Of a DNA stretch of 63,518 nt, positions 33,977-63,518 are shown one piece after another. The DNA comes from Microcystaceae cyanobacterium (GTDB taxonomy: Bacteria > Cyanobacteriota > Cyanobacteriia > Cyanobacteriales > Microcystaceae). The notes under the pieces were generated by a model. That model did not search any database, was not told the origin of the DNA, and was given only the letters and a program-made list of their open reading frames with translations. The position numbers were made by a program, and so were the translations under genes. The stretch is from positions 1 through 63,518 of the forward strand of contig JBBAUO010000021.1 of the NCBI GenBank assembly GCA_040398185.1. Reading direction: 5' to 3'. Each line of letters starts with the position of its first letter. Position 1 is the first letter of the stretch.

Positions 33977-34031
33977 AGATTTTCCTCCTCTATCTATGTT
34001 ATCATATCTATAGATTTTAGCAATAGGTGGC

Positions 34032-34430
34032 ATGGGACAAAATTACTGGCACGAAAATACATCAGTCAGCCTCATCAACTATCACTTCGTTTGGATAGTC
34101 AGAAAACGGAAGAGAATACTATACGGGGAGATGGATGCTAGGGTTCAACAGCTAATTAGAGAAGCGGTTATTGCCTTAGAATGTGAAGTTATAGCCTTGG
34201 AAACAGATCAAGATCATGTTCATCTGTTCATACAATCTAAGCCAATCTATTCCCCTGCCCAAATCATGCACAATATTAAAGGCTCAGTTTCTCATCAAAT
34301 CAGGATTGAGTTCCCTTGGGTAAAAGAAAAGTTATCAAGTTTGTGGACGCGAAGCTATTTCTGTGGGACTACTGGAAGTGTTTCAGGAGATACTGTTAAG
34401 AGGTATATTGAAGCACAAAAAATTAAATAG
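34032..34430 (+). CDS. tnpA: IS200/IS605 family Y1 transposase TnpA
   Basis: 'NYHFVW', HuH motif 'DHVHLFI', catalytic Tyr region 'WTRSYFCGTTG'. 132 aa. Confidence 0.85.
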   Translation: MGQNYWHENTSVSLINYHFVWIVRKRKRILYGEMDARVQQLIREAVIALECEVIALETDQDHVHLFIQSKPIYSPAQIMHNIKGSVSHQIRIEFPWVKEKLSSLWTRSYFCGTTGSVSGDTVKRYIEAQKIK

Positions 34431-48782: not shown

Positions 48783-49118
48783 ATGTTACCGTTATTTCAC
48801 CGAGAAGTCTATCATATTTGGTTAAATTTTTTGCAAGTTTTGCATAATCAAGCGGATCAAGCCAACTTTGAGCAAGTACAAAGGTATTTCTATGATGTGG
48901 TAATGGGGTTAGATGATGGGGAAATTGAGCCAATATACTTATCCCGTTGGCGCTCTCTGCAAACCGAACTACATCGCTTGGTACGTTTATTGGAGACAGA
49001 TTGGTTATTTTGTGGCTCGGCTCGTCAAAGTTCCACAAGGGAGAAAAGATTACAGGGATTTAGGGGGCGAATTGAGAAAATAATGGAGTATTGTCGGATT
49101 TTAGTCCAAGAAAGCTAA
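48783..49118 (+). CDS. small conserved cyanobacterial protein, possibly PatD-like
   Basis: 111 aa. Family assignment from memory of the PatD N-terminus only, so weak. Confidence 0.3.
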   Translation: MLPLFHREVYHIWLNFLQVLHNQADQANFEQVQRYFYDVVMGLDDGEIEPIYLSRWRSLQTELHRLVRLLETDWLFCGSARQSSTREKRLQGFRGRIEKIMEYCRILVQES

Positions 49119-49458: not shown

Positions 49459-50691
49459 ATGAAAATTGCCATAATCAGTTCAGGATTCTTCCCCGTTATT
49501 GATGGTGTAACAGTGACTCTCTTTCATCGATTACGCTATCTTAGTCAATATGGTCATCAAGTTTTATTGTTTTGTCCAGATTATAGTTCGCTGGGTTCAA
49601 TTTATCCAGATTGGCAAAAATATACAGGGGAAATCTTTCCTAATGTTAGAACAATTAATCTTCCTAGTACTCCTTTTATGGGTCTAGAATTTGAACAAAA
49701 TGTTAGTCAAAAATCCTATTCAGTGGTCTTACAAGAATTACAATTGTTTCAACCAGATATTATCCATGTTGATGAACCTGAGAGACTATGGTTAGGCTTC
49801 TTAAAACGAGCGGGGCTTGATTTTTCCAGACAAGCTAAAATTCCTTGTGTTAGCTTTTTTCACACCAATTTTATTGAATATCTAGAAGATTATTTACCTC
49901 TTCCCCAATGGGGTTTAAAAATTCTTCAATTCTTAGCGAAATATCATCGTAATTGGATCTATAATGGCTACGACTTGACCTTAATTTCCAGTAAAACGAC
50001 GGCTCATAAAGTCACCAGTCTAGGGTTTAAAAATGTAGTAATCGCTGATTTATTAGGAGTTGATATTGAGCCGTATAAAAATTTAGTCAAAGAATCTAAC
50101 TACTTTGCGACAAAGTATAATATTAAAGACATTAATCAAAAACTAAAATTAGTCTTTTTAGGGAGATTAACCCCTGATAAAGGTTGGCATTTTACCTTAG
50201 ATGCTCTGACTCGGTTTTCTTCTCAGATTAATTTTGACAATCTTGCCTTTATTATTGCAGGAGAAGGAACAATGAAAGCAGAAATTCAACAAAAAATCCG
50301 TAATTTAACTTCTCATATTTATCTATTAGATCGCATTTTGCCAGAACACATTCCCCCATTACTGATCAATAGTGATATTTATGTCACCACCTCTGAAAAA
50401 GAGACAAAAGGGTTGACTATTTTAGAAGCCTTAGCCGCAGGACTTCCCATCCTTGCCCCCCATGCAGGAGGGATTATTGATACTATTCAAAATAACTATA
50501 ATGGTCTACTCTTTACTCCAAAAAATGCGGTAGAATTTATCCAAAAATTAAATTTGTTATTAGAGAATATGGCTTTAAGACAGAAGATAAGTGCCAATGC
50601 GAAAGTAAGTATTCATCGCGGATGGGAAGAAAGTGTTAATAATCTTATCAATATTTGGCAAGAAACAAGGCGTTCTGTAGACGTTGAATGA
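49459..50691 (+). CDS. glycosyltransferase family 4 (GT-B, group 1)
   Basis: N-terminus 'MKIAIISSGFFPVIDGVTV' and C-terminal 'TSEKETKGLTILEALAAGLPILAP' (E-x7-E region) typical of GT4. Confidence 0.8.
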   Translation: MKIAIISSGFFPVIDGVTVTLFHRLRYLSQYGHQVLLFCPDYSSLGSIYPDWQKYTGEIFPNVRTINLPSTPFMGLEFEQNVSQKSYSVVLQELQLFQPDIIHVDEPERLWLGFLKRAGLDFSRQAKIPCVSFFHTNFIEYLEDYLPLPQWGLKILQFLAKYHRNWIYNGYDLTLISSKTTAHKVTSLGFKNVVIADLLGVDIEPYKNLVKESNYFATKYNIKDINQKLKLVFLGRLTPDKGWHFTLDALTRFSSQINFDNLAFIIAGEGTMKAEIQQKIRNLTSHIYLLDRILPEHIPPLLINSDIYVTTSEKETKGLTILEALAAGLPILAPHAGGIIDTIQNNYNGLLFTPKNAVEFIQKLNLLLENMALRQKISANAKVSIHRGWEESVNNLINIWQETRRSVDVE

Positions 50692-50965
50692 CGAGGTAGG
50701 GCGTTAGTAGCATAAAGTCGCCAACCACAGTCTCTCTTAAAGGTAGCTATCTCTGACGGGCACTAATGATACGTTAAAATCAGTACCGTTTGATGAACAC
50801 GACGGCTAGGACTGTTAGTAGTGGGACGACCCCCGTTTTCATAAACTTTATCATAATGAATTTCCGACACAATTGAGGTAGGAATATAGCCATTAACTCA
50901 ATAACGCTTCAGAATTTCTGCTACTAAAGTATCTTTTCCTGGTCGGTCAGCCGAGAGATAGAGTA

Positions 50966-51799
50966 TCATTTATTTGTTTTGCGACTAGCTTTACTAATAA
51001 TACTATCAAAATATTTATTAATAGGTGTTCCTAATAAGCTATGAAATTTTGCCAAAAAAGCCATGGCAAAACCAGGTGTTATAATAAAAATTTTTTGCTC
51101 AATTCCTTTGAGAATTTCTATTGCAACCGATTCTGGACTCCATATTTTTACTTGACCAGTAATCGCTTTTGTTTCTGGTGGTTTTGTTATATTTTCTTGT
51201 GCTAGTTGCGGCGTATCCGTATCTGAAGGATAAACAATTGATAGATTAATTCCTAACATTTTTAACTCTGGACGTAAAGATTCCGCTAATCCTCTAATTG
51301 CAAACTTAGTAGGACTATAGGCAGTATAACCATAAATTCCCATTAATCCAGCCCCAGAAGAAATTAATACAATATGGCCTTTCCCTTGTTCTTGCATGGC
51401 AGGCAATACGGCTTTAATACAATATAGAGAGCCAAAATAATTAACCGCCATCGTTTGTTCAAAAACTTCGATCGGTAAGTTTTGAAAATAGTCTGGATAA
51501 ACAATTCCTGCGGAGTTAATTAATAAGTCTGGTGGGCTAATATTATTAATTACTTGTTCAAGAACTTGTTCAACTTGTTGACGATTACTCACATCAGCTG
51601 TATAAGTTAAAATTTGTTGACTTTTCCGAATTTTTATAGCGTCAAGTTCTGATTTGACCTGTTCTAACTTGAGAGAGTTACGGGCAATTAGAGAAAGATT
51701 ACTTCCAGATAAGGTCAATTCTTTCGCCAATGCTCTCCCGATGCCGCTTGACCCTCCTGTAACAATAGCATGGGAGTAGTGAGATTTTATTAAGATCAT
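50966..51799 (-). CDS. SDR-family oxidoreductase, 3-ketodihydrosphingosine reductase (KDSR)-like
   Basis: 'HAIVTGGSSGIGRALAKEL...LSLIARN' Rossmann motif, catalytic 'YSPTKFA' (YxxxK), hydrophobic C-terminal tail as in KDSR-type SDRs. Confidence 0.75.
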   Translation of the reverse strand: MILIKSHYSHAIVTGGSSGIGRALAKELTLSGSNLSLIARNSLKLEQVKSELDAIKIRKSQQILTYTADVSNRQQVEQVLEQVINNISPPDLLINSAGIVYPDYFQNLPIEVFEQTMAVNYFGSLYCIKAVLPAMQEQGKGHIVLISSGAGLMGIYGYTAYSPTKFAIRGLAESLRPELKMLGINLSIVYPSDTDTPQLAQENITKPPETKAITGQVKIWSPESVAIEILKGIEQKIFIITPGFAMAFLAKFHSLLGTPINKYFDSIISKASRKTNK

Positions 51800-51821
51800 T
51801 ATTAATTATGATAATAGGACA

Positions 51822-52484
51822 TTAACGCGTACCAGAAAGTCTAGCTGATTCTTGCGAAACAACACCTAATGTTTTCTCAACAGTATCTTCATAAACAGTG
51901 AAAAATAAGCCCCGATTAAAACTTGATTGGATATCAGGTTCTACACTAACTTGGTGAGTAATTAAATATTTATTAGAACCCATGGAGTCAATTTGCCAGG
52001 AACCTTGTAGACTTTTCACTTCCCCTTCAACAACTTTGAATTTAATTTGTTTAGGATAATCTTCGTTGACAACAATCTTCACTTTCGCCTTTCTAGAGAA
52101 GGTTAAAAGCTGAAAAACTTGCACTTGTTCAAACACTTTGTAATTCCCTCGATTTTCCAGCAGATTGCTTTCAACTACATTAGGCATATATTTCTCAAAA
52201 TTGTCGTAATCGGTTAAAACTTTCCAAATTACTGATAAATCACCTTTGGCAATCACATATCCTGTGTATTGTCCTTTACTTCCGTTAAGAATGACCTGTC
52301 CTTCTTTTAGGTTAAGCGTAGCCGCCGAAGAATTTTGTTTAACTCTATAGTCATGAACTTGTGCAAGGACAGGAGAATTGGCAAACGATGTGAGAGTGCC
52401 TTTTGAGACTGCTATTGTTGCTAGTGTGATGAATAACAGCCTTCTCATCCATTGTAGATGTTGTTTTTGCCAAGGTTGAATCAT
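51822..52484 (-). CDS. secreted SRPBCC (START/polyketide-cyclase-like) lipid-binding-fold protein
   Basis: Signal peptide 'LLFITLATIAVSKGTLTSFA' followed by ~180-aa SRPBCC-like beta-grip pattern. Confidence 0.5.
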   Translation of the reverse strand: MIQPWQKQHLQWMRRLLFITLATIAVSKGTLTSFANSPVLAQVHDYRVKQNSSAATLNLKEGQVILNGSKGQYTGYVIAKGDLSVIWKVLTDYDNFEKYMPNVVESNLLENRGNYKVFEQVQVFQLLTFSRKAKVKIVVNEDYPKQIKFKVVEGEVKSLQGSWQIDSMGSNKYLITHQVSVEPDIQSSFNRGLFFTVYEDTVEKTLGVVSQESARLSGTR

Positions 52485-52608
52485 GGATTTTGCTAAAATT
52501 TCTAAAAGCCTCTTTTATTTTAACTTAATTGCTAAAAAAGGCAACTTATCTCTTTCCTCTTACTTTAGATAGAGGCTAAGTGAAAGTCATTAATTTGCAG
52601 TTTTTTGA

Positions 52609-53496
52609 TTAAATCTGCCTTCTTAGGTCGTATTGATAATATTTCTGACAGAAGATAAGCCAGTTATGAATAACTTGGCGATACTCAGCTTTAGCTTTAT
52701 ATTGTATGTTGGCGTGGTTAGCTCCTTCGACTAAAATCAAAGATTTAGCCCCTGAAGCTTTTTTATATAAGTCTTGACTCATTGTATAAGGAATAGTTTT
52801 GTCGGCTGTTCCATGAATAATTAAAATTGGCATTTTTAGGGAGCTTATCTTAGATAAAGAATCAAATTTTTGCGTTAAAATTAGCGATTTTGGAAATAGT
52901 TGAATGGGCAAATAATAGTCGATTACTGCTGACATTGAAGTAAAAGAACTTTCTATTATTAAACCGCCCATCGTCGGATATCGAGTGGCTAAATTAATGG
53001 CTATTGCGCCTCCCAATGAATATCCATAAACAAATATATTCTGTGGCAAAATTTGTTTTTTTATGGTTAAATAAGACCAACTTGCTTCCGCATCTTCATA
53101 CAAGCTAATTTCATTAGGAAATGCACCTTGGCTTTTTCCATAACCTCGATAGTCAATCAGTAATATTGAAACGCCTAAGTCATGAAAAAACTCCACTTTA
53201 TCTAGTAAATCCCCTAAGTTACTACTATTACCATAAAAATATAATACTGTGGGACTCTTGAGGAGATTTGAATCAATCCACCAACCATACAATTGTCCTT
53301 TAGGCATAGTAATCCATATCTCCTCATAATTTAACTTTATATCTTTTGGGGTATTATTAATCGCAGAAGAAGGGAAAAATATAAGATGAGTTTGCCCAAT
53401 TCTTAAGCCAATTATTAAGCCCAAATAAAGGCATAAAAAAATACTACTTAGAAACAGGTATTTTTTAGATAGGGCTAAAATAGTTCGCTTGGCCAT
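52609..53496 (-). CDS. membrane-anchored alpha/beta hydrolase (ABHD/Bem46-like)
   Basis: N-terminal TM anchor, 'GYSLGGAIA' nucleophile elbow, 'IIHGTADKTIP' and 'GANHANI' acid/His blocks. Start placed at ATG 53496. Confidence 0.7.
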   Translation of the reverse strand: MAKRTILALSKKYLFLSSIFLCLYLGLIIGLRIGQTHLIFFPSSAINNTPKDIKLNYEEIWITMPKGQLYGWWIDSNLLKSPTVLYFYGNSSNLGDLLDKVEFFHDLGVSILLIDYRGYGKSQGAFPNEISLYEDAEASWSYLTIKKQILPQNIFVYGYSLGGAIAINLATRYPTMGGLIIESSFTSMSAVIDYYLPIQLFPKSLILTQKFDSLSKISSLKMPILIIHGTADKTIPYTMSQDLYKKASGAKSLILVEGANHANIQYKAKAEYRQVIHNWLIFCQKYYQYDLRRQI

Positions 53497-53897
53497 AGAG
53501 TTAAAAGGAAGATTATGCATGCTACAATGGGGTTCGAGTAGCAACGTATACTGTTGGATGACTTGAAAAAAGAAGCCTCGGTTCACAAAAAGCTCGTTAT
53601 CGAAGTTTAGCGACCGCTACTAATTTACTGTGTATGATAGCTTGGTTTAATGATACACGGGAGCAAGTCAGTTCTACAGAACAAATGAACTACAACAGAA
53701 AGCAGCAAAATTGAGTAAAATGAATATCGAAGTCAAGCCGAGTCCTAAAATGAACCCAGAGACCGAAAAAAAACTCCAAGAACATCTGCGAGAAATGTTA
53801 AGTAGAACAACTGCATCTAATTCTACCAAGAACTGGTAGTCTTTACGACAGCCTGCTAGTAAATTTGTTCTGTATTTTAATTAAACTAGAGACGCAA

Positions 53898-55502
53898 ATG
53901 TTACAAAAATATTATCGACAATGGGCATTAAGAAGTCTTGTCTTAGGAATTTTGGTCCCGATACTAACTACTTTACCGGCTTACGGATCTGAAAAAATAA
54001 TTCTAATTTATGGAGGTTTAAATTTCTCTATTCCTGTAAAATCTTTGGAACGATTTGTTCAAAATGGAACAGTTGACCATAGTTTAAAATTCTATTTTCG
54101 TTTTTTAAATGCTCAACAAAAAGCTAATTTACAAGAATTTTTACGCACCCGCTACGCAGTGAAAACCTTCGCATTACATCAGTTAGGACAAACCTATGCG
54201 GGAGAGCAATTATTAACTACCTTAGGTAAGGGAATTCAAATTCCAGGTGGTCGTAATGGTCATTATGCTATTCGAGGCTCGATGATACAAGCTTCAGCAA
54301 CACCTGAAGGTCTGAGTGTGATCAATGTTATCCGTCATTTTCCAACTGATATACAATTAAACATTACATATCTTCTAGCATCTACTAAGCACATTTTTAG
54401 TCTCGTTCAGGACACACAACATTTTATGAAATCGTTACCACAAACGGAGGTGATTAACTCAACGAAAACAATCTCTATTCTACCTAGTTTGGACTTAGAA
54501 AAGACAGATGTGTTTAAAATCAGTAAAAAAGTTTTTTCTTTACATGATTACAAACGCAATCGTCAGTTAAAAATAGCATTCTATTTTCCTAAAACTGAAC
54601 AAAATAAATTTCCTGTAATTGTTATTTCTAACGGTTTGGGAGCACATCTAGATAGATTTAGTAAGTTAGCAGAACATTTAGCTTCTCATGGATTTGCGGT
54701 AATAATTGCCGACCATCCCAATAGTAATGACGAGAGACAAAACGCTTTTTATGCAGGATTATACTCAGAACCTTTTGATGCTACTGAATTTGTTGATCGC
54801 CCTTTAGATGTTACATTTATTCTTGACCAATTTGAGAAATTAAATTCTACTCAGTTTGACCATAAACTCAATTTACAAGAAGTAGGAATTTTGGGTTATT
54901 CTTTTGGGGGAGCCACTGCTTTTGCGTTAGCAGGAGCAAAAATTAACTTTCAGCAACTAGAAAAAGATTGTAAATCTCCTAATGGATTTTATAATATATC
55001 TATCTTATATCAATGTCGGGCTTTAGAGCTTCCTCAAAAATCTTACGATTTAAAAGATCAGCGAATTAAAGCCATATTTGCATTTTTTCCTTTTAGTCGT
55101 AGTCTTTATGGACAATCAGAAATGAATCAGATTAAAATTCCTGTGTTTTGGCAAGCCACAGATGCGGATGTAATTACACCATTATTAACTGAACAAGTCC
55201 CTCCCTTTACTTGGTTACAATCTCGTGACAAATATCTGGCTATTGCTGAAAAACTTCCCCACACTCGTATCATTTTAAATGCCACCAGTAAACTAATTAA
55301 TCAACAAATTACGGAGGAGCAGATAATTCAAACAACTCACCATTATCTAAGCACTTTAAGTTTAGCTTTTTTCAAAACCTATATTGCCCATAATAATCTT
55401 TATTATTCCCATTTACAGCCCCCTTATATATTATCCATTAGTCAGGAACCTTTTAGGTTACATTTAACGCAAAAAGTTCAATTTTCCGTAAATAAAAAAT
55501 AG
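53898..55502 (+). CDS. secreted alpha/beta hydrolase with N-terminal DUF1400-type domain
   Basis: Signal peptide 'LVLGILVPILTTLPAYG'. N-terminal ~200 aa resembles cyanobacterial DUF1400. C-terminal hydrolase with 'GYSFGGATA' nucleophile elbow. Start moved to ATG 53898. Confidence 0.6.
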   Translation: MLQKYYRQWALRSLVLGILVPILTTLPAYGSEKIILIYGGLNFSIPVKSLERFVQNGTVDHSLKFYFRFLNAQQKANLQEFLRTRYAVKTFALHQLGQTYAGEQLLTTLGKGIQIPGGRNGHYAIRGSMIQASATPEGLSVINVIRHFPTDIQLNITYLLASTKHIFSLVQDTQHFMKSLPQTEVINSTKTISILPSLDLEKTDVFKISKKVFSLHDYKRNRQLKIAFYFPKTEQNKFPVIVISNGLGAHLDRFSKLAEHLASHGFAVIIADHPNSNDERQNAFYAGLYSEPFDATEFVDRPLDVTFILDQFEKLNSTQFDHKLNLQEVGILGYSFGGATAFALAGAKINFQQLEKDCKSPNGFYNISILYQCRALELPQKSYDLKDQRIKAIFAFFPFSRSLYGQSEMNQIKIPVFWQATDADVITPLLTEQVPPFTWLQSRDKYLAIAEKLPHTRIILNATSKLINQQITEEQIIQTTHHYLSTLSLAFFKTYIAHNNLYYSHLQPPYILSISQEPFRLHLTQKVQFSVNKK

Positions 55503-55518
55503 TATTGAGTTAGGAATA

Positions 55519-57132
55519 ATGAATAAGTTTTTATTTGCTTTTATGTCGAAAGTCTCTAAAAGATACTTGCTGATAACGATTATTATTCTAGTTTTAGGAC
55601 TCTATTTTAGAATCACAAATCTGAGTAATAAAATTTATTGGGTTGATGAAGTTGCAACTTCTTTGCGCGTGGCAGGGTTTACAAAACAAGAATTAATTCA
55701 GGATGTTTTAAATCTAGGCGTGATAGAGATTAAATCCTTGCAATATTATCAAAAAATTACGCTAAAAAAATCTTTTTATGATTTAGTAAAAGCTTTAATT
55801 AAAAGTCCAGAACATGCACCGCTTTATTTTATCGTTGCTAGAATATGGACTGAGTTTTTTGGCAGTTCAATTTTCTCAATTAGAAGTCTATCTGTGATAT
55901 TTAGTATCCTAAGTTTACCATCTATTTATTGGTTATGTAGACTATTATTTCAATCTTCAAAACCTGGATGGATTGCGGTTTTGCTTTTGGCAATTTCTCC
56001 TCTATACGTAGCCTATGCTCAAGAAGCTCGACCTTATAGTTTATGGCTCGAAATAATTCTTCTATCCCAGATTACTCTTTTGGTATGTTTACGTTCCAAT
56101 TCTTTACTAAATTGGTTTTACTACACTATTATTTTGATTCTTAGTCTTTATACTTCTTTACTATCAATTTTACTAATTATTGCCCAGAGCGCCTACGTAA
56201 TTATAATTAATAAACTTCGAGCTGAATCACAAGTTATTTTCCAATTAATCGCCGTCGGAATTGCCTTAATATTTTTTAGCCCCTGGTTAATCATCATGGC
56301 TCAAAATTGGCAACAATTTCAAGACAACACAACTTGGATGAAAGTCCACTTAAATCTAGGCGCTATGGCGGTAATTTGGTTTTATAGCATGGCTACGATT
56401 TTTATTGAAACACCAATTTATCTAAATTTTGATGCTATGATTTTGACTCGAATCATTATCGACATTAATTTATTTATTTTAGTAATTTTTTCTCTATGTT
56501 TTATTTATCGTAAAACTAATAAAAGTGTTTGGTTATTTGTTTTATTGCAGATACTGATTCCTTTAATAATCATGAGAGGATTAGACCTAACATTAGGAGG
56601 ACAGCGTTCAACAGCTATTAGATATATGATGCCCAGTTATTTATTGGTTCATGTGACAGTTGCTTACTTATTTTCAAGTAAAATTTTAACCGCTTCCAAG
56701 GGTTTTTTTCAAACCAAAAAACAATGGATAGTGCTACTTTTTCTGATTTTGTTTATTGAAGTATCTTCCTGCACTTTTATGTTGAATAAATCTCCCCAGT
56801 ATCAAAAAACTCGCAATCTCCATAATCCTGAGATCGCTCAAATTCTTAATCATAATCCTTTGGCAATTTTACTGACTGAGCCATCCAATATACTTGACGC
56901 TATTTCTATTAGTTATTTACTCAAACCATCTATTCAATTTCAGTTAATTTCTAATCCTTCTCTACTAACACTTTTACCTCTCAGTAGAACTCTTTATGTT
57001 TTAAATCCTTCCTTAGACTTAATCAATCAAATCCGACAGAAGCTAGGGGATTTTGAAATCGAACAAGTCTATCAACCTAAGTTATTAACAGAAGGGGAAA
57101 TTCATTTATCACTTTGGCAGTTAAAAACTTAG
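55519..57132 (+). CDS. glycosyltransferase family 39 (PMT_2/ArnT-like GT-C membrane glycosyltransferase)
   Basis: 'YWVDEVATSLRVAG', 'EHAPLYFIVARIW', 'RSLSVIFSILSLPSIYWLCR' match the ArnT/PMT N-terminal loop and helices. ~12 TM. Translationally adjacent to the upstream hydrolase. Confidence 0.75.
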   Translation: MNKFLFAFMSKVSKRYLLITIIILVLGLYFRITNLSNKIYWVDEVATSLRVAGFTKQELIQDVLNLGVIEIKSLQYYQKITLKKSFYDLVKALIKSPEHAPLYFIVARIWTEFFGSSIFSIRSLSVIFSILSLPSIYWLCRLLFQSSKPGWIAVLLLAISPLYVAYAQEARPYSLWLEIILLSQITLLVCLRSNSLLNWFYYTIILILSLYTSLLSILLIIAQSAYVIIINKLRAESQVIFQLIAVGIALIFFSPWLIIMAQNWQQFQDNTTWMKVHLNLGAMAVIWFYSMATIFIETPIYLNFDAMILTRIIIDINLFILVIFSLCFIYRKTNKSVWLFVLLQILIPLIIMRGLDLTLGGQRSTAIRYMMPSYLLVHVTVAYLFSSKILTASKGFFQTKKQWIVLLFLILFIEVSSCTFMLNKSPQYQKTRNLHNPEIAQILNHNPLAILLTEPSNILDAISISYLLKPSIQFQLISNPSLLTLLPLSRTLYVLNPSLDLINQIRQKLGDFEIEQVYQPKLLTEGEIHLSLWQLKT

Positions 57133-59481
57133 TCACTTGTACCAATAAGCATCACGCTGAAATGGATAGTTCGGTAGGATAATGGGAGAGAATAAGTTTT
57201 TTTCTTCAAAATTTGACCAATTAATTGAGCCACCTAGACTGTAAAATTTGGCTAAGTAGCCACACAAACAAGACCAAATATCTGGAAATTGAAAATCAAT
57301 AGAAATCATCAAATCATAGTCTTCTTGATTTAAAATTTCGAGAGCCTTCTCATTGGATACTTGAGAAGATATTGGATCTGGAAAAAACAGATGTCTATTT
57401 AGATAACTTAATAAAGGAACTTTACCAGGAAAATAAGTGACAGCATCCGATTTTTTTTGTCCAGCTAAGACCATTAAGCTATCTTTTAAACTGACAATTT
57501 CTGCAACAGTCATAGCCACCCAATGTCCAACACCATAACCGATAACGGCTGTGGGAAGAATGCCCCAAGACTCCAAAAGCTTGAATAGGGCATATTCTAA
57601 TATGAAGAGAATGAGCATTAGCTCAGAACTTGTCTGATTTTCTTGTTCAAAAAAGTTACCTAAATCAATCTTCAGGCAAAGTAGAATTTCTTGTTTACAA
57701 TCATCAATTGACTTTTGAAAAACGGATTGAGTTTGATATAAAAACAATGCCTTTTTCCAAGATTTAGAAACATCTTGACAAAATAGAAAAGGAATTTTTA
57801 AGGAATGATTTCTGCTAACTTGTCCAAAGAAGAGATCAAGGGTGAATTGTTCATTCAGAAAGTCTATCAGTTTTTGCTGCAGTGTCGCCAAAGAAAACGT
57901 GACAACCGCTAAACGATAATTAAAATCTGAGCGGCTAGTGTTTGCTGTTCCACAAACATTAGCCAAAGATAAATAGGGATGGGTGGTCAAAAAATCACAA
58001 TATTTCTCAACTAAGACTGTCCTGGCTGATTGACTTTTAGCAGAAAGGGTAAATAAGTAAGCAGGATATTTGACCATTTCCTGAGCCGATACAACGGGAG
58101 TTGAAGCAGGAAATTGAGAAACAATAACATGGGCATTTGTTCCACTAAAGCCAAAAGAACTTACTCCCGCCACTTTTGAATGATTATCTCTTGGCCAAGA
58201 CATATTTTTGGTGGGAATTACCAACGGCAGTTGTGACCAATTAATATTTGGATTAGGATTTTTAAAATGAATTTGAGGAGGAATAGCTTCATTTTGAAGA
58301 CATAAGATAACTTTGATTAAGCTAACAATGCCAGCGGCAGCTTCCAAATGGCCAATATTAGCTTTAACCGAGCCTACAATTAAAGATCCAGAACTTTTTT
58401 GGCTAAAAACTTGCCCCAGTGCTCCAATTTCGATGGAATCGCCCAGTATTGTTCCTGTTCCATGGGCTTCCACATAACTAACGTCATCTGCCTTTATATG
58501 AGCATTTTTAAGGGCTTGTTGAATAACAGCTTGTTGAGCAAGTCCATTAGGAGCCGTTAAGCCATTACTACGACCGTCTTGATTGATAGCCGACCCCCGC
58601 AGAACTGCTAAAATATTATCCTGAGCAGTGATAGCCTCTTGTAACCGTTTGAGAACTACGACACCACATCCCTCTGAGCGCACAAAGCCATTGGCAGAGG
58701 CGTCAAAGGTCTTACAATGACCATCAGGAGATAACATTCGTGCTTTTGAAAAACTAATACTAATTTCAGGGGAAATAATACGATTGACCCCTCCAACAAT
58801 TGCTAAATTACACTCTTGGTTACGGAGACTAGCCATTGCTAAATGAATTGCCACTAGAGAGGATGAGCAAGCTGTGTTCACTGAGAGGCTTGGACCATTT
58901 AGCCCTAAAAAATAGGATAAACGACCTGATGCAGTGCTGTGGGTATTACCTGTTATCAGATAAGCATCAATTTCATTAGGATCTCTTTTTAATAGTTGAT
59001 GCCAGTAATCATTACCACAAATTCCCACAAAAACACCTGTTGAACTGCCACTTAAATTATCGGGAGGAATTCCTGAATTTTCTAGTGCTTCCCAACATAC
59101 TTCTAAAAGGACTCTTTGCTGAGGATCTAAACTAATAGCTTCTCGCGGGGCAATATTAAAGAAATGAGCATCAAAGGTTTGAAGATGTGGAATAAATCCG
59201 CCATAAAACGTACATATTTTCCCTGTTTGATTTAGATCAAGATCGTAGTAAGATGCTAAGTTCCAATGTTCTGGAGGAATTTCGCTGATTCCGTCTTTAC
59301 CATCTCGTAAAAACTGCCAGAAATCATCAGGATTATTAATGCCTCCAGGCAGACGACAACCCATTCCAATTACCGCTATCGGCTCACTTTTAGCTTGCTC
59401 TAAATCATTCAATTTATCTTGCAATTGTTTGATCGCAACTAAAGCTTGTTTTGTCGTAGATAACTCTTGGCTCGATGACAT
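57133..59481 (-). CDS. type I polyketide synthase fragment: ketosynthase (active) + KS-AT linker + truncated inactive acyltransferase; no ACP
   Basis: KS Cys 'NTACSSSLVAIHLA', His 'EAHGTGT' and 'NIGHLEAAAG' all present. AT GHSxGE site replaced by 'GYGVGH'. Gene ends with post-AT motif 'LPNYPFQRDAYWYK'. Stop codon abuts the convergent GT39 stop (TAGTCA). Confidence 0.8.
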   Translation of the reverse strand: MSSSQELSTTKQALVAIKQLQDKLNDLEQAKSEPIAVIGMGCRLPGGINNPDDFWQFLRDGKDGISEIPPEHWNLASYYDLDLNQTGKICTFYGGFIPHLQTFDAHFFNIAPREAISLDPQQRVLLEVCWEALENSGIPPDNLSGSSTGVFVGICGNDYWHQLLKRDPNEIDAYLITGNTHSTASGRLSYFLGLNGPSLSVNTACSSSLVAIHLAMASLRNQECNLAIVGGVNRIISPEISISFSKARMLSPDGHCKTFDASANGFVRSEGCGVVVLKRLQEAITAQDNILAVLRGSAINQDGRSNGLTAPNGLAQQAVIQQALKNAHIKADDVSYVEAHGTGTILGDSIEIGALGQVFSQKSSGSLIVGSVKANIGHLEAAAGIVSLIKVILCLQNEAIPPQIHFKNPNPNINWSQLPLVIPTKNMSWPRDNHSKVAGVSSFGFSGTNAHVIVSQFPASTPVVSAQEMVKYPAYLFTLSAKSQSARTVLVEKYCDFLTTHPYLSLANVCGTANTSRSDFNYRLAVVTFSLATLQQKLIDFLNEQFTLDLFFGQVSRNHSLKIPFLFCQDVSKSWKKALFLYQTQSVFQKSIDDCKQEILLCLKIDLGNFFEQENQTSSELMLILFILEYALFKLLESWGILPTAVIGYGVGHWVAMTVAEIVSLKDSLMVLAGQKKSDAVTYFPGKVPLLSYLNRHLFFPDPISSQVSNEKALEILNQEDYDLMISIDFQFPDIWSCLCGYLAKFYSLGGSINWSNFEEKNLFSPIILPNYPFQRDAYWYK

Positions 59482-59502
59482 AGTAGTAACCAGTAACTAA
59501 TA

Positions 59503-60270
59503 TTAATTGATTTGATCCTTCCAAGCTTCTAAATTTTGCTTACCTTTTTGGACATAGGGAGAAATAGAGACGAGCTTAATAATAAATTGATTAACTAGAG
59601 AAAGAGGAAACTTGAGAGGGCGTAGAAAATCTACAAAGAGGACGACGCGAATATCATTAGTTTGGTTCCAAGCTTCGTGGGGAAAAGTGTCATCAAAAAT
59701 TAAGCTTTTTCCTTCTTGCCAATGCCGAATTTCATTACCTACCCGAATTTGACAATCCGTTGAGGAATGGGGAACTTTTAAGGCAAGATGATAACGAATA
59801 ACCCCTTTGTAAGGGCCACAATGCTCAGGGATGTGTTTATGGGGTAGTAAAATTGAAAAAAATGCAGTTTTCATACCAGGGATTTGTTCAACTAATTGGG
59901 TAGTTTGAGGACATTTCTGACAATTTTGCTCTGCCTTTAGTCCATAGGCATAGAAAAAGAAAGTCTTCCAACGATGATCTTGAGTAATATCGAGCTGATC
60001 AGGGGAAATATCTTGAAAATTTGGAATATTATTTAAACTTTTTAAAAGTTCATCTAGTTCTTGTCGAATAATTAACCAGTTTTCTTCTAAATTTATGACC
60101 CAGTTAAATTGTCGGCAATCAAAAAAGACTTGATTTTCTACTAAGGAATGCCTATCTAATAAGCCTTCTAGTTTTCGGAAATACTTCTCACCTTGAGTAA
60201 CCACAAACTGATGATGTTTATCACCCATCTTTGAGATAATTTCCTTAATGTTTTTAGCAATAATGTTCAT
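59503..60270 (-). CDS. aspartyl/asparaginyl beta-hydroxylase family (AspH/LpxO-like) Fe(II)/2OG oxygenase
   Basis: 'LLPHKHIPEHCGPYKGVIRYHLALKVP' and 'FDDTFPHEAWN' match the pfam Asp_Arg_Hydrox 2-His-1-carboxylate region. Confidence 0.75.
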   Translation of the reverse strand: MNIIAKNIKEIISKMGDKHHQFVVTQGEKYFRKLEGLLDRHSLVENQVFFDCRQFNWVINLEENWLIIRQELDELLKSLNNIPNFQDISPDQLDITQDHRWKTFFFYAYGLKAEQNCQKCPQTTQLVEQIPGMKTAFFSILLPHKHIPEHCGPYKGVIRYHLALKVPHSSTDCQIRVGNEIRHWQEGKSLIFDDTFPHEAWNQTNDIRVVLFVDFLRPLKFPLSLVNQFIIKLVSISPYVQKGKQNLEAWKDQIN

Positions 60271-60466
60271 AAGTTATTAGAAGCCGATTTCCGTCTCGTA
60301 ATTACTAGCCACTAATCTAGTATATCCAATAATATAGCTCTTGTATTTAGATTGTCAACTTACTGTAAGGATAAGGCCCTTTGACTTCACTCAGTACAAG
60401 CTGCTCAGTGACCACAGGTAACAAATATCGTTCGGAAATTATTGAGGATTGCTATAGCAACATTTA

Positions 60467-62797
60467 TTAGCGTAATTTCACCTTAATTATATGGGGATAA
60501 CCATCAGTCTTAGGATCAAGGGGTGAACCGCTTACCCAAACTTGGTTATCTTGAATCTGAAGAATTTGACGACTTCCACTGCCAGAAAAGTCAAGATTCA
60601 TCTTGGGATACAGATTCGATAAAATGGTTTTATCATCAATCATAACACCTGTTTGATCTGGATGTTGAGAATTTGAAAAAATTCCATTTTTCCAATCTAA
60701 ATTATTAATATTAGAGGGAAGAATTTGACGAGTTAAAGCAAAGTCATTTAAGGAAATTAATAGCTGCGCCTGACAAGATTTAACAGTCAATTTTGCTCGT
60801 TCCTCAGGATAAGCTTTCATCTCTAAAATTGACTCTGTTCCCTTTTGATGTTCAAGAGAAATATGCCAATTGGAGTGACTAGAAGGTGCGCCATAACTGT
60901 AGTTGCCTTTTTTTCCAATAGATTTTTGGTGATCTGTTTTTCGTTCAATAATATTCACTAATCCTCGATTTCCTATTAGAGGAATAGACGTAGGTTTAAC
61001 GGTTAAATAATAATTGAGAGTTATATCAGCATAGTAGATATTATGTTCTTCTTTATTCACCGATTGAGGTGTATTAATTATTAATTTTACTACATCATTT
61101 TTTTCTTGAATAATTTGGCAAATAATGGGTAAAGAATTTAGATGTTTCGGTTGCTCTAGGCGTTGCCAAATTAAGTTATAGAATGTCGCTTCGACCAATT
61201 GGTAGTCCTTAATAAATTCTCTATAAAACCACCAATTTGTTCGTCTTACCCAAGTTTCCCATAAATAAGCATCTTCTCGCAATGTAGTAATATATTCAGG
61301 TTTAAATTGTTCCCAGTTACTTAAATATTGATATCTAGATTTATCTCCTAAAGCATGAATGATATAATCAGTTCCAGTGGGATTGAGCGCTCCGATAATC
61401 ACATCCATTCCCGTTGAGTAAGTAGATAATATTTTTTGTAAGGAAGGTTTATTTTGTAGTTCTTGTTTTAACGTTTTAGCTATTTCAATACTTGATTTCC
61501 ATTTAGGGGATAACCATCCGCCTAACTCTGCTACTTTAATAAATCCTTTTTCTGGTGAAGGAATAGGATAATAAATATAATAGTTAATCACATGAATTAA
61601 AGGAGCAATGACAAAGATTAACATCATAAATAGAGATGCCTGCCGAAAAATAAAGTGAATATTAATTCGTGCTAAAAATCGCTGAATTTTTCCATGGAAT
61701 AATAAATAAATAGACAAAGGAATGGTGAAAAGGGAAACAATACCACTTAACAGAAAATAACGAACACTCATAGTCCCTCCCACGGACGAGAGAATCCCTG
61801 CTGTGTAAACGGTTAAGCTAAGATAGATTAAAAGTAGGTGTTGAATGGTATAAGTTTTAAAATATCCTCGTAAGATAATGATGATAATACTCACCAAATA
61901 AATGCAAGAAAATCCCAAAAATAAAGGATGTTTTAAGAAGTCTTGAGGTGCAAGTATCTTATTATAATTTTCAAACCATACATAATACCAAAATTGATCT
62001 CCAACTACTCCACTAAAATTACTTTTTAACCACTCAGGTAGATGTCCTTGGGTCAACAGCATTCCCATTATATAAAAAGTTGTTGCAGCAGATAATATCG
62101 TTAAGAAAATTTTCCTTAATCTTCTTTTTCTATCTTGGGTAATCGCATAAATAATTGTCAAAAAAATTAAATTAAAAGTCGAGGGAATGCCATAATCATT
62201 CGACCAAAGGGGTTGCATTCCCATTAAGCCACCTATTCCTAAATAAAGTAACCATGAATGAGAGAATGATAGCAAGAGAACTAATAAAATTAAGCTTGTC
62301 AAAAAAGGCAAGGAACTCCGAACATTCAAATTACTTGTTCCAGGGCCGACAATTTCATTAATTAAATGAGAATTCTCGAAAAGAAAAGAAACAATAGTCA
62401 TCACAAAAGAAGCCCAAATTAAAGAAGAATATTTTGTCAGTCCCGAGCAAAAAAATAAAGTCCATAAAACTAAAAAATGCAAGCTTAAAGCGATTGAATA
62501 AATACTGAATTGAGAAGATGCAAAATCCCTCCCTGTCAGAAACGTAAAAAAAGCATTGAGATAGGTCGGACCCAAACCTAAATAAGGATTAAATTCTCTT
62601 CCAGGAATCTGCCCTAATAAAATTCTACGCACTGGGTTAAAGGTTTGAAATGCGCCATTGAGTGGGATATAGTCTAAATTTAATCGATGATAACTTGCTA
62701 TACAATAAATAGACAAAATAACAGATAAAAGAGCGACAAATGGTAAATATTTTTGCCATTCAATACCGAGAAAAATTGTTTTGCGTTCTATTCTCAT
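60467..62797 (-). CDS. large polytopic membrane protein with C-terminal extracytoplasmic domain (possible GT-C-like)
   Basis: 776 aa. ~12-14 TM helices in the first ~420 aa, then ~350-aa hydrophilic domain. First gene of the minus-strand operon with the AspH-like and KS genes. Confidence 0.5.
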   Translation of the reverse strand: MRIERKTIFLGIEWQKYLPFVALLSVILSIYCIASYHRLNLDYIPLNGAFQTFNPVRRILLGQIPGREFNPYLGLGPTYLNAFFTFLTGRDFASSQFSIYSIALSLHFLVLWTLFFCSGLTKYSSLIWASFVMTIVSFLFENSHLINEIVGPGTSNLNVRSSLPFLTSLILLVLLLSFSHSWLLYLGIGGLMGMQPLWSNDYGIPSTFNLIFLTIIYAITQDRKRRLRKIFLTILSAATTFYIMGMLLTQGHLPEWLKSNFSGVVGDQFWYYVWFENYNKILAPQDFLKHPLFLGFSCIYLVSIIIIILRGYFKTYTIQHLLLIYLSLTVYTAGILSSVGGTMSVRYFLLSGIVSLFTIPLSIYLLFHGKIQRFLARINIHFIFRQASLFMMLIFVIAPLIHVINYYIYYPIPSPEKGFIKVAELGGWLSPKWKSSIEIAKTLKQELQNKPSLQKILSTYSTGMDVIIGALNPTGTDYIIHALGDKSRYQYLSNWEQFKPEYITTLREDAYLWETWVRRTNWWFYREFIKDYQLVEATFYNLIWQRLEQPKHLNSLPIICQIIQEKNDVVKLIINTPQSVNKEEHNIYYADITLNYYLTVKPTSIPLIGNRGLVNIIERKTDHQKSIGKKGNYSYGAPSSHSNWHISLEHQKGTESILEMKAYPEERAKLTVKSCQAQLLISLNDFALTRQILPSNINNLDWKNGIFSNSQHPDQTGVMIDDKTILSNLYPKMNLDFSGSGSRQILQIQDNQVWVSGSPLDPKTDGYPHIIKVKLR

Positions 62798-63518
62798 AAA
62801 TCTTTAAGGATTGATAGGATTAAACTGACTCAAAGTAAGCTATCTCGTCCGAAAGGGACGAGGCTTTGAATAGCCTGAATCTATTGGATAAGCCAATAAA
62901 CTCGAAGCTTTAGGTTGGCTTACATTCAACCCCACTAAAGCAAAATTATTTCAGAAGTGTTTTGTCTCCATCCTCAGTCCATCCAGGCACTTTATTACTA
63001 CAATTTCTGTTGCTCTATACTGACTTGAAGCTTGACGACTAGGGTTAGGACTTTGTCCTATGGCTCTAAAAACTTGCTACTATGATTATACTTTAGAAGG
63101 GGATAGAATTAAAGCTTTTCTGAGATTTTAAACTGAGCATCGTCGAAGAGCGGGGGTTCAGACCCAATCTTTTCTTTTCTGAGCAAGTTTTGCTTTCATC
63201 TTATTGCCAGAGATCATGGGCAAATTCTTTTAGATAAAAGGGTTTGGAGAGTAATAAGTGGGTACACAAAATAAATTACCCAAAATTAGTAGAAGCGGGT
63301 TTAGCCAGAAGCCTTGTCAAATAAACGATATGATTCGCTCAAAACCCACCCACTTCCGTGTAGTTAATTGTGTTTCTTACTTTTCCCGCTAAGTTCAAAA
63401 TGCAGTCTGTAAGGGCATTATAGCCTTGGGGTAGTTTTAGTGATATAGTACAGAAAAGTTTTTGGGTGGAGGTCAAAAAATGTTGGAATGGTGGGTGAAA
63501 AATTTTGCCAGTTGCGCC

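Follow-up and report, generated by a model that had tools for sequence, protein, structure and literature searches.

The stretch of cyanobacterial DNA analysed here (63,518 nucleotides, hereafter the window) encodes a PMT_2 glycosyltransferase and a hydroxylase of the AspH type, both of which may tailor the product of an envelope-lipid pathway that is conserved in cyanobacteria. This product would most likely be a polyketide-derived, sphingolipid-like amino-lipid that is acylated, 2-hydroxylated and glycosylated. As the best explanation of the gene content we tentatively favour a cluster that makes and tailors a sphingolipid-like, 2-hydroxyacylated envelope glycolipid. A sphingolipid-like glycolipid is preferred to lipid A because in relatives the cluster adjoins a PKS fused to an SPT-like domain. 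The original prediction of a module that builds or decorates an acylated envelope glycolipid is therefore retained in part, with lipid A, the target that it suggested, becoming a weaker rival.

Three ORFs, whose positions were checked, span 55519–60270 end to end, and the PMT_2 glycosyltransferase, ketosynthase and AspH-family hydroxylase predicted in this segment are all found there. The many conserved homologues (1115 matches for the glycosyltransferase, nearly 8000 for the ketosynthase and 3853 for the hydroxylase) indicate that all three are true genes and not chance ORFs. They lie within a nine-gene block (49.4–62.8 kb) of low GC content (0.345 in 49459–62797 versus 0.437 in 1–49000), so that the island assumed earlier is real in composition. 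The glycosyltransferase and hydroxylase genes had been described as a pair; both are real, but they are not direct neighbours in the window, where they belong to two convergent operons with the ketosynthase gene in between.

The glycosyltransferase gene (55519–57132, forward strand) encodes a 537-residue protein that matches Pfam PMT_2 (PF13231) with 52.4 bits (cut-off 26.1) and combines a polytopic membrane fold with a conserved acidic motif in loop 1 on the extracytoplasmic side, the features that define GT-C enzymes. Its predicted structure (pLDDT 88.7) displays a GT-C fold with a small periplasmic α/β domain at the C-terminus and no MIR insert. The sequence has the DE motif of loop 1; in the family, W41-x-D43-E44 in the first periplasmic loop is invariant, as are S96-P97-E98 and Q168-E169-A170-R171. 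The model superposes on ArnT, which we take to belong to Pfam PMT_2, with a TM score of 0.54 and with the same length and architecture, but the identity is only 10–12%, AglB, ALG12, STT3B and Pmt4 reach equal or higher scores, and no arn genes were seen in the scanned part of the window or among the genes called at the syntenic loci. With ArnT, PMT, STT3 and ALG proteins about equally close, the protein fits GT39 and GT83 alike. The label 'ArnT-like GT39' given to it originally is imprecise, since ArnT is a GT83 enzyme and the label mixes two CAZy families. HMM classification upheld the PMT_2 match and not the GT39 assignment: only PMT_2 matched in Pfam, and neither PMT (PF02366) nor a MIR domain was detected. 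There was likewise no match to an ArnT-specific model, the only NCBIfam score being 15.8 bits to an unrelated mannosyltransferase model, and comparison with the sequences of PDB chains gave only a 15-bit match to an ABC ATPase.

The hydroxylase gene (59503–60270, reverse strand) encodes a soluble 255-residue Fe(II)/2-oxoglutarate hydroxylase of the AspH superfamily (Pfam Asp_Arg_Hydrox, 194.5 bits, cut-off 22.6), which the Pfam and NCBIfam matches place in the OlsC/LpxO branch. In the alignment with human AspH (89 bits), residues S139, H150, R159, H161, H198 and R208 coincide with S668, H679, R688, H690, H725 and R735, which we take to be the iron- and 2OG-ligand residues, and by this comparison every position that binds iron or 2OG in AspH is conserved. 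The best curated family is OlsC (NF052565; 265.6 bits, with residues 35–253 aligned to positions 30–248 of the 259-position profile), yet the score remains under the 450-bit equivalog cut-off, while that against the LpxO model (NF033391) is 132.4 bits, below a cut-off of 500 bits. The former description as an LpxO-like enzyme thus holds as far as a lipid-type hydroxylase of the AspH family is concerned, but 'OlsC-like' fits better (266 versus 132 bits). That the oxygenase stands closer to lipid than to peptide hydroxylases is supported by the threefold difference between the OlsC and AspH scores and by the absence of the TPR substrate-binding domain of AspH proper, the protein consisting of the oxygenase domain only. 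With OlsC, which 2-hydroxylates the ester-linked acyl chain of ornithine lipid in Rhizobium tropici, it shares this domain, all of the ligands and a nearly full-length match. It differs from both OlsC and LpxO in scoring below their curated cut-offs, in belonging to a cyanobacterial clade of its own (the best 120 matches are at least 55% identical, and every match with an organism name is cyanobacterial) and in having no ornithine-lipid or lipid A genes nearby; no olsB/olsA or olsF was noticed among the 39 scanned ORFs of the 63.5 kb window. No 19-residue stretch reaches a Kyte–Doolittle mean of 1.6, and from this lack of hydrophobic segments the enzyme is predicted to be cytoplasmic.

Between the two lies the gene for a 782-residue type I PKS ketosynthase (57133–59481, reverse strand) with ketoacyl-synt N- and C-domains, a KS-AT linker and an Acyl_transf_1 remnant that scores below threshold, but no PP-binding (ACP) domain in Pfam. 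The ketosynthase triad Cys205/His340/His378 is intact; in the AT remnant, GHSxG has become GYGVG, around 100 residues have been lost, and there is no HAFH motif. Judged by these domains, the protein (KS-AT0) is a stand-alone ketosynthase with a dead AT and not a full type I PKS elongation module. We read its coiled-coil-like N-terminal leader as a docking domain.

The first gene of the block (49459–50691, forward strand) specifies a GT4 glycosyltransferase (Pfam, NCBIfam) that is predicted to be cytoplasmic because it has no membrane span, its sole hydrophobic stretch (residues 3–21) being the N-terminal strand of the fold; its best NCBIfam matches, GlcNAc-phosphatidylglycerol synthase and monoglucosyl-diacylglycerol synthase, are both far below their cut-offs. 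A short-chain dehydrogenase/reductase (SDR; 50966–51799, reverse strand; Pfam adh_short, 168.6 bits), with orthologues in two relatives, is a candidate KDSR/Tsc10-like 3-keto reductase of an amino-ketone intermediate: among PDB chains it matches the 3-ketodihydrosphingosine reductase TSC10 (8jat) over its full length with 92.4 bits, a near-tie with the best FabG (93.4 bits). It is followed by an SRPBCC/Polyketide_cyc lipid-binding protein (51822–52484, reverse strand; Pfam, 50.5 bits) with a signal-peptide-like N-terminal leader, which is probably a periplasmic lipid carrier. The acyl-hydrolases that the original prediction placed nearby correspond by Pfam to an α/β hydrolase that has a single membrane anchor at the N-terminus and GYSLG as its nucleophile motif (52609–53586, reverse strand), orthologues of which occur in four relatives, and to a DUF1400 plus α/β hydrolase protein (53865–55502, forward strand; DUF1400, 123 bits) that starts with a signal-peptide-like leader and has the nucleophile motif GYSFG. 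The gene for the latter lies 16 bp from the PMT_2 gene and probably shares a transcript with it. Upstream of the hydroxylase and ketosynthase genes and on the same strand, a gene at 60467–62797 (reverse strand) encodes a polytopic membrane protein of 776 residues with no Pfam family. Its predicted structure suggests another glycosyltransferase of the GT-C-like type, in which a large periplasmic domain is rich in β-strands, a kinship visible only in the fold, as its profile gave no match to PDB sequences. It was also considered as a diverged PMT_2 paralogue or as a match of a 748-residue neighbour of the Nostoc hydroxylase, and both were rejected (hhalign probability, 0.3%; BLASTP, E = 0.5).

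Relatives of the block were collected with an alignment-based PMT_2 scan of metagenomes, which gave 58 loci screened by tblastn for cluster proteins only; gene tables were read for the clusters of five relatives, and a single-protein PMT_2 scan of genome contigs returned one locus. The gene set recurs in many cyanobacteria, culturable carriers being, for example, Aphanothece hegewaldii CCALA 016, Gloeocapsa PCC 73106, Chroococcus FPU101 and Thermoleptolyngbya. In the closest syntenic relative, L002, the order hydroxylase, KS-AT0, PMT_2 (convergent), DUF1400, then α/β hydrolase and SRPBCC protein is the same as in the window, with 63–80% protein identity between shared genes, and a GT4 orthologue (75% identity) adjoins the hydroxylase. 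Directly after the shared genes of L002 lies a PKS that ends in KR-ACP-Aminotran_1_2, and a PKS with such an α-oxoamine synthase (AOS) domain is also found at most 10 kb from the cluster in L008, L041, L062 and L073, the last of these a complete genome; a giant PKS with an SPT-like C-terminal domain therefore adjoins the cluster in five independent relatives. The best PDB match of the AOS domain is Sphingobacterium SPT (7e-71, 242 bits), followed by bifunctional AONS/KBL (about 230 bits) and then by human SPTLC2 and plant LCB2. In the window, tblastn revealed neither an AOS nor a FAAL or ACP gene; as the PKS-SPT gene is absent from it, the link to such a synthase is drawn wholly from the synteny of the relatives.

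Among the ten loci with a close PMT_2 homologue, DUF1400 is present in nine, KS-AT0 in eight, the SRPBCC protein in seven and the hydroxylase in five. In ten independent loci no more than 3 kb separates the hydroxylase gene from a PMT_2 homologue, and it is usually found 24–60 bp downstream on the same strand, and the two are directly adjacent in seven loci in which the PMT_2 identity is 40–52%. Paralogous PMT_2 genes have a GT4 gene directly downstream in many loci and often a PagL-like barrel beside them (PagL Pfam, 62.3 bits in L008). This conservation bears on the idea that the two enzymes are uncoupled, with a general cyanobacterial lipid hydroxylase that only sometimes sits beside the cluster and a PMT_2 enzyme that glycosylates a polysaccharide or a protein. 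The hydroxylase is indeed widespread and occurs apart from the cluster in Stanieria, in Nostoc and in the ERZ25070591 genomes (two contigs, 5.2 and 5.4 Mb), from which it follows that its substrate may be more general; moreover, the two genes are in separate operons in the window, and the GT-C fold, for which STT3/AglB, Pmt4 and ArnT score alike, is compatible with different acceptors. We nevertheless regard uncoupling as unlikely, since same-strand adjacency at 24–60 bp in many divergent loci is hard to explain without co-function, and the PMT_2 gene is almost always beside those for an exported lipid-type hydrolase and the SRPBCC protein.

For the favoured sphingolipid-like glycolipid a pathway can be proposed, the order of which is inferred, the domain assignments excepted. 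A FAAL would activate a fatty acid that a type I PKS extends; in the relatives this is a KS-AT-DH-ER-KR-ACP megasynthase, the terminal SPT-like AOS domain of which would condense an amino acid and the chain carried by the ACP into a 2-amino-3-keto long-chain base. The chain-building PKS-SPT, absent from the window, would have to be encoded elsewhere in the genome. The SDR of the cluster may then reduce the 3-keto group in the manner of KDSR/Tsc10, and KS-AT0, apparently suited to dock on the carrier protein of an upstream PKS, may handle or supply the second acyl chain. On the cytoplasmic side, the OlsC/LpxO-type dioxygenase would hydroxylate an acyl chain of the lipid at C-2 and the GT4 enzyme would attach the first sugar; after flipping, the PMT_2 and 776-residue GT-C enzymes would add periplasmic sugars from polyprenyl-phosphate donors. 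Finally, the SRPBCC protein, together with the pair of α/β hydrolases that are exported or membrane-anchored, might carry the lipid towards the outer membrane or re-acylate it, potentially together with the PagL-like barrel that many relatives possess.

Tailoring of lipid A, as the original prediction had it, would instead involve ArnT-like transfer of a sugar to lipid A or its core, LpxO-like 2-hydroxylation of a secondary acyl chain and remodelling of its acylation by the hydrolases and, in relatives, by the PagL-like protein. PMT_2, the LpxO/OlsC branch of hydroxylases and PagL are all families of lipid A modification that occur together in the relatives, the PMT_2 model agrees with ArnT in length and architecture, and several proteins of the cluster are exported. 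Against this, the hydroxylase scores twice as high with the OlsC as with the LpxO model and is devoid of hydrophobic segments, whereas LpxO, the lipid A secondary-acyl 2-hydroxylase of Salmonella, is anchored in the inner membrane by hydrophobic helices; OlsC is soluble. Furthermore, no lpx, arn or polyprenyl-phosphate-sugar synthase genes were found in the scanned ORFs of the window or among the genes called in the clusters of five relatives. The reported lack of an ArnC-like GT2 enzyme agrees with this, as no Glycos_transf_2 domain was detected in the 39 window ORFs scanned, a set that leaves out the smaller ORFs and one of 651 residues. Among the relatives, L071 and L072 have a gene for a 242-residue GT2 protein near that of the hydroxylase. 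The closest partners are instead parts of a PKS (KS-AT0 in eight of ten loci and PKS-SPT in five), for which lipid A modification has no need, and lipid A is thus an improbable target.

A second lipid to be weighed is a non-amino polyketide glycolipid resembling the heterocyst glycolipids (HGL), in which a long hydroxy- or keto-alkyl chain made by a PKS is glycosylated by the GT4 and GT-C enzymes and hydroxylated by the dioxygenase, the SPT-like domain of the relatives then being part of a variant pathway irrelevant to the window. The missing AOS of the window accords with such a product, as do the neighbours of the Nostoc hydroxylase, namely genes for a FAAL, a polysaccharide flippase and an ABC exporter (FtsX, ABC ATPase and membrane-fusion-like) that we read as DevBCA-like. 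The hgl island of Nostocales is likewise a cyanobacterial PKS-linked envelope-glycolipid cluster that includes an SDR along with a glycosyltransferase (PMC4247773). Its PKSs are, however, of the PUFA type, and there is no amino-transfer step. The present cluster also occurs in the presumably non-heterocystous Aphanothece and Thermoleptolyngbya, and to our knowledge the hgl island includes neither a GT-C enzyme nor an AspH-type hydroxylase. The location of the PKS-SPT beside the shared genes of L002, the full-length resemblance of the window SDR to Tsc10 and the action of the nearest characterized hydroxylase relatives on the acyl chains of amino-lipids or of lipid A all argue against a non-amino product, to which we assign a low probability. 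Protein modification, that is GT39-type O-mannosylation combined with Asp/Asn β-hydroxylation of a secreted protein, is highly improbable given the absence of PF02366, MIR and TPR domains, a lipid-model score three times that of AspH, the predicted cytoplasmic location of the hydroxylase and the lack of a candidate EGF-like or repeat substrate gene in the cluster.

The sphingolipid-like reading can be set against known bacterial routes. In Caulobacter and Sphingomonas, ceramide is made by Spt, bCerS and CerR and converted by Sgt glycosyltransferases into an outer-membrane glycolipid. SPT-type condensation, a reductase and cytoplasmic glycosylation leading to an outer-membrane glycolipid would be common to both systems, but the cyanobacterial cluster has no free-standing Spt, no CerR and no bCerS-type N-acyltransferase, its chain being made by a modular PKS; no ceramide synthase or other obvious N-acyltransferase was found in it. 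We know of no periplasmic GT-C enzymes in the bacterial ceramide and glycosphingolipid pathways. PKS-based synthesis of sphingolipids in bacteria was first shown in 2025, in Pseudomonas fluorescens MYb115, with the PKS SgaA, the AOS SgaB and an SDR that resembles KDSR (Peters et al., 2025; PMC12134224). The relatives' PKS with its SPT-like domain and the Tsc10-like SDR of the window parallel this system; by contrast, the cyanobacterial AOS is fused to the C-terminus of the PKS, the window itself has no PKS-AOS, and there are additional components, namely the stand-alone KS-AT0, a FAAL, one or two GT-C enzymes, a GT4 enzyme, the OlsC-like hydroxylase, the SRPBCC protein, exported hydrolases and often a PagL-like barrel.

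Two cyanobacterial sphingolipids have been reported, whereas according to a 2022 study the biosynthetic genes were not known and a putative Nostoc SPT showed no activity (PMC8895605); sphingolipids without known genes are also described for cyanobacteria elsewhere (PMC6272925). No published description of the cluster was found in the literature searched, including a phylum-wide survey of PKSs (PMC4247773). It is possible, albeit rather doubtful, that part of this missing genetic basis is a phylum-wide pathway in which a PKS-SPT fusion would supply the long-chain base, an OlsC-type dioxygenase would 2-hydroxylate the acyl chain, and periplasmic GT-C enzymes and a PagL-like barrel would tailor the product. 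Sphingolipids would then be a new acceptor class for GT-C glycosyltransferases, and the tailoring of lipopolysaccharide would have a parallel on a non-LPS outer-membrane glycosphingolipid. Confirmation would also provide functions for large families that now bear the generic names 'glycosyltransferase family 39', 'beta-hydroxylase' and DUF1400. The outer-membrane lipids of cyanobacteria being poorly known, a cluster in which a PKS-SPT fusion, a lipid 2-hydroxylase, GT4 and GT-C enzymes and a PagL-like protein are linked across many cyanobacteria offers concrete targets for knock-out and lipidomics.

Two further systems were considered and rejected. In L003, a neighbouring gene encodes a 2736-residue FAAL-ACP-KS-AT protein, which suggested an olefin synthase (Ols), but the synthases of L002, L008, L062 and L073 end in an AOS domain and not in a sulfotransferase/thioesterase. 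A mycolic-acid-like Claisen condensation was discarded because the NCBIfam matches to Pks13 and 'mycolate reductase' are those of a generic ketosynthase and SDR, far below the cut-offs, and because the relatives' PKS has an SPT-like end. Contigs nearly identical to the window occur in JGI 3300045443 and in ENA ERZ28593897 and ERZ19570864. Three near-identical metagenome contigs have the same borders as the window, and in one of them a transposase remnant lies beyond the gene for the 776-residue protein.

The genes at 55519-60270 lie within a nine-gene block (49459-62797), which is most economically read as encoding a dedicated envelope-lipid pathway, the specific mechanism being advanced tentatively. 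The segment is filled by exactly three ORFs, which have thousands of conserved homologues and are therefore not chance ORFs: a PMT_2 gene (55519-57132, + strand, 537 aa), a ketosynthase (KS) gene (57133-59481, − strand, 782 aa) and a hydroxylase gene (59503-60270, − strand, 255 aa), with Pfam domains matching the glycosyltransferase, condensing enzyme and hydroxylase originally predicted there. They occupy the sixth to eighth places in the block and are preceded, according to Pfam and NCBIfam, by genes for a GT4 glycosyltransferase (49459-50691), a short-chain reductase (SDR; 50966-51799), an SRPBCC/Polyketide_cyc protein (51822-52484), an α/β-hydrolase (52609-53586) and a DUF1400 α/β-hydrolase (53865-55502); the ninth gene (60467-62797, − strand) encodes a 776-aa polytopic protein without a Pfam or NCBIfam family.

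The spacing of the genes suggests two convergent operons, one with DUF1400 followed by PMT_2 after a 16 bp gap and the other with the 776-aa protein, the hydroxylase and the KS in that order, spaced 196 and 21 bp apart. At 57132/57133 the PMT_2 stop codon directly adjoins that of the KS gene (0 bp gap), leaving no space for separate terminators between the operons. The GC content of the block (0.345 versus 0.437 for positions 1-49000), together with a transposase DNA-binding fragment just past the 776-aa gene in the near-identical metagenome contig L011 (106-300), suggests that the block was acquired or rearranged as an island. The last 720 bp of the window (62798-63518) hold no ORF of at least 80 aa, and a 111-aa ORF without a family (48783-49118, + strand), also predicted as a gene in L010 and L012, two near-identical contigs, lies between SpoT and GT4. 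To the left of 48.6 kb the window carries housekeeping genes, including QueA, TIM, UPF0182, PII, SfsA and SpoT. Amid these are an IS605-family OrfB/TnpB-like ORF (32657-34033, − strand, 458 aa) and, elsewhere in the window, four ORFs without a Pfam match at E ≤ 1e-8: 7731-9227 (−, 498 aa), 10053-10895 (−, 280 aa), 21414-22814 (−, 466 aa) and 31929-32645 (+, 238 aa).

The hydroxylase matches Pfam Asp_Arg_Hydrox with 194.5 bits. In NCBIfam its highest-scoring model is that of the ornithine-lipid ester-linked acyl 2-hydroxylase OlsC (265.6 bits, with nearly the whole profile covered), followed by LpxO (132.4 bits); both scores are below the curated cut-offs of 450 and 500, respectively. Its only relatives of solved structure are human AspH oxygenase domains (at most 89 bits), in the alignment with which all the AspH iron and 2-oxoglutarate ligand positions are conserved (Ser139, His150, Arg159, His161, His198 and Arg208). 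The protein is thus assigned to the lipid-acyl 2-hydroxylase branch as an intact dioxygenase, nearer to OlsC than to LpxO and formally a member of neither; OlsC-like would describe it better than the proposed LpxO-like. LpxO is membrane-anchored; no hydrophobic segment was found in the hydroxylase, which also differs from AspH in having no TPR region. Its best 120 database matches are at least 55% identical, and all those with an organism name are cyanobacterial.

The PMT_2 protein exceeds the Pfam PMT_2 cut-off (52.4 versus 26.1 bits) with no other notable match; neither PF02366, a MIR domain nor an ArnT model was matched in Pfam and NCBIfam, and no arn operon was found with the gene. Across 45 homologues (37-68% identical to the window protein; all named ones cyanobacterial), Trp41-x-Asp43-Glu44 in the first periplasmic loop, Ser96-Pro97-Glu98 and Gln168-Glu169-Ala170-Arg171 are invariant. 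The protein is modelled as having a GT-C fold, which does not settle its CAZy family or acceptor; of the earlier designation as an ArnT-like GT39, which mixes GT83 and GT39, the fold is retained and GT39 is not. The 776-aa protein appears to represent an undescribed glycosyltransferase-like family of more than 1000 representatives: its sequence matches nothing in Pfam, NCBIfam or the PDB, its confident AF2 model (pLDDT 89.8) resembles GT-C enzymes and includes a large β-rich C-terminal domain, and the invariant positions of the family include Gly48, Phe50, Gln51, Asp201 (in a WSND motif), Ile480 and His481. The best NCBIfam matches of the GT4 are membrane glycolipid synthases, far below the cut-offs. 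None of the 39 window ORFs scanned encodes a GT2 polyprenyl-phosphate sugar synthase, in agreement with what was originally noted.

The KS protein is a type I polyketide synthase (PKS) ketosynthase, with both ketoacyl-synt halves, KS-AT linker families, a sub-threshold Acyl_transf_1 remnant and no carrier-protein domain in Pfam. The Cys205/His340/His378 triad is intact here and in all orthologues examined. In the acyltransferase (AT) remnant the nucleophile motif GHSxG is replaced by GYGVG (GCGVG, SHGIG or GEDIG in orthologues), approximately 100 residues have been deleted and no HAFH motif remains; in some orthologues the remnant has disappeared entirely. The N-terminus resembles a docking domain of the coiled-coil type, and the protein is a stand-alone KS, probably fed by a carrier protein encoded elsewhere.

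Neighbourhoods of hydroxylase homologues, of the KS and of 58 metagenome loci found via the PMT_2 alignment were compared by tblastn. The closest syntenic relative, L002 (63-80% protein identity), preserves the order hydroxylase, KS with its AT remnant, convergent PMT_2 and DUF1400, then α/β-hydrolase and SRPBCC. Around PMT_2 homologues at least 44% identical to the window protein (group A; ten independent loci of at least 8 kb), DUF1400 was present in nine loci, the KS in eight, SRPBCC in seven and the hydroxylase in five. When all PMT_2 homologues are considered, ten independent loci have the hydroxylase no more than 3 kb from PMT_2, in most cases on the same strand and 24-60 bp downstream. 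Group B homologues (32-43% identity) are as a rule flanked upstream by a divergent gene for a PagL-like outer-membrane barrel and immediately downstream by a GT4; this unit recurs in cyanobacterial metagenome contigs, namely L008 (5405-6043), L025, L028-L030, L032-L034, L049 and L060, sometimes followed by a FAAL or PKS-SPT gene. In Aphanothece hegewaldii (L001), a 362-aa protein with nine WG-containing β-repeats (11620-12708) is encoded between PMT_2 and the hydroxylase, which is followed by a Haem_oxygenas_2-type iron enzyme.

A PKS of approximately 2300-2700 aa adjoins the cluster in L002, L008, L041, L062 and L073, the last from a complete 5.2 Mb genome; those of L041 and L073 were identified through tblastn matches alone. 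Its domain order is KS-AT-DH-ER-KR-ACP-Aminotran_1_2 in L008 and L062, and the C-terminal part in L002 ends KR-ACP-Aminotran_1_2. For the last domain the closest match is serine palmitoyltransferase (SPT) of Sphingobacterium (7e-71, 242 bits), followed by a bifunctional AONS/KBL enzyme (∼230 bits) and then, at 216-226 bits, by human SPTLC2 and plant LCB2, which rank above dedicated KBL, ALAS and AONS enzymes. In L062 an upstream PKS ending DH-ER-KR-ACP immediately precedes the stand-alone KS, and FAAL genes are present in several relatives' loci. By tblastn the window contains no α-oxoamine synthase (AOS), FAAL or PagL. The metagenome contigs L010-L012, with cluster proteins at least 99% identical to those of the window, reach SpoT on one side where long enough. 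A chain-building megasynthase, if existing, must therefore be encoded elsewhere in the organism.

In the proposed pathway, the PKS-SPT would form a 2-amino-3-keto long-chain base, which the SDR would reduce; over its full length the SDR scores about as well against the 3-ketodihydrosphingosine reductase Tsc10 (92.4 bits) as against the best FabG (93.4 bits), which is only suggestive. A second acyl chain would then be attached, possibly with participation of the KS, and the OlsC-type dioxygenase would hydroxylate C-2 of an acyl chain on the cytoplasmic side. The GT4 would add the first sugar and the GT-C enzymes would build the head group further on the periplasmic side, after which the exported hydrolases, SRPBCC and, in relatives, PagL might handle the lipid en route to the outer membrane. 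Signal-peptide-like N-termini are present in the DUF1400 and SRPBCC proteins and a single membrane anchor in the other α/β-hydrolase; both hydrolases retain a GxSxG nucleophile. The domain assignments and synteny are direct results of the searches, from which we infer the order of steps, substrates and product. A direct precedent for PKS-derived sphingolipid logic is found in Pseudomonas fluorescens, in which the PKS SgaA, the AOS SgaB with SPT activity and a KDSR-like SDR produce sphingolipids (PMC12134224). Sphingolipids reported from cyanobacteria include an acetylsphingomyelin of Scytonema and mooreaside A, a glucosylceramide of Moorea (PMC6272925), and no biosynthetic genes for cyanobacterial sphingolipids were known as of 2022 (PMC8895605). 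No description of the cluster was found in the literature searched, which did not reach most subscription journals, and the combination of this logic with periplasmic GT-C, PagL-like and SRPBCC partners is unprecedented.

The coupling of the hydroxylase to the cluster may be only loose, as the gene occurs alone in Stanieria and Nostoc and lies approximately 600 kb from the cluster in one complete genome, surrounded there by other lipid genes, namely FA_hydroxylase, a 242-aa GT2, a CMAS-like methyltransferase, patatin and FAAL. Since the window has no AOS, its cluster could possibly make a non-amino, HGL-like glycolipid, the SPT-like domain being linked in relatives. Tailoring of lipid A, the target originally proposed, is possible because PMT_2, LpxO/OlsC-branch hydroxylases and PagL belong to families known to modify it; however, this would leave unexplained why PKS parts and an SPT-like domain are so tightly linked, and the cluster has no linked lpx or arn genes. 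An envelope glycolipid with a lipid-type hydroxylase is retained, probably not lipid A. A protein-modification system is unlikely; the oxygenase does not group with peptide hydroxylases, which was originally named as a sign of such a system.

On two contigs of 5.2 and 5.4 Mb (L071 and L072, ERZ25070591), the region at ∼11.8-20.7 kb holds a cluster-unlinked hydroxylase beside other lipid-themed genes, namely FA_hydroxylase (PF04116), a 242-aa GT2 as a candidate polyprenyl-phosphate sugar synthase, a CMAS-like methyltransferase, patatin, a dynamin-like GTPase and FAAL.
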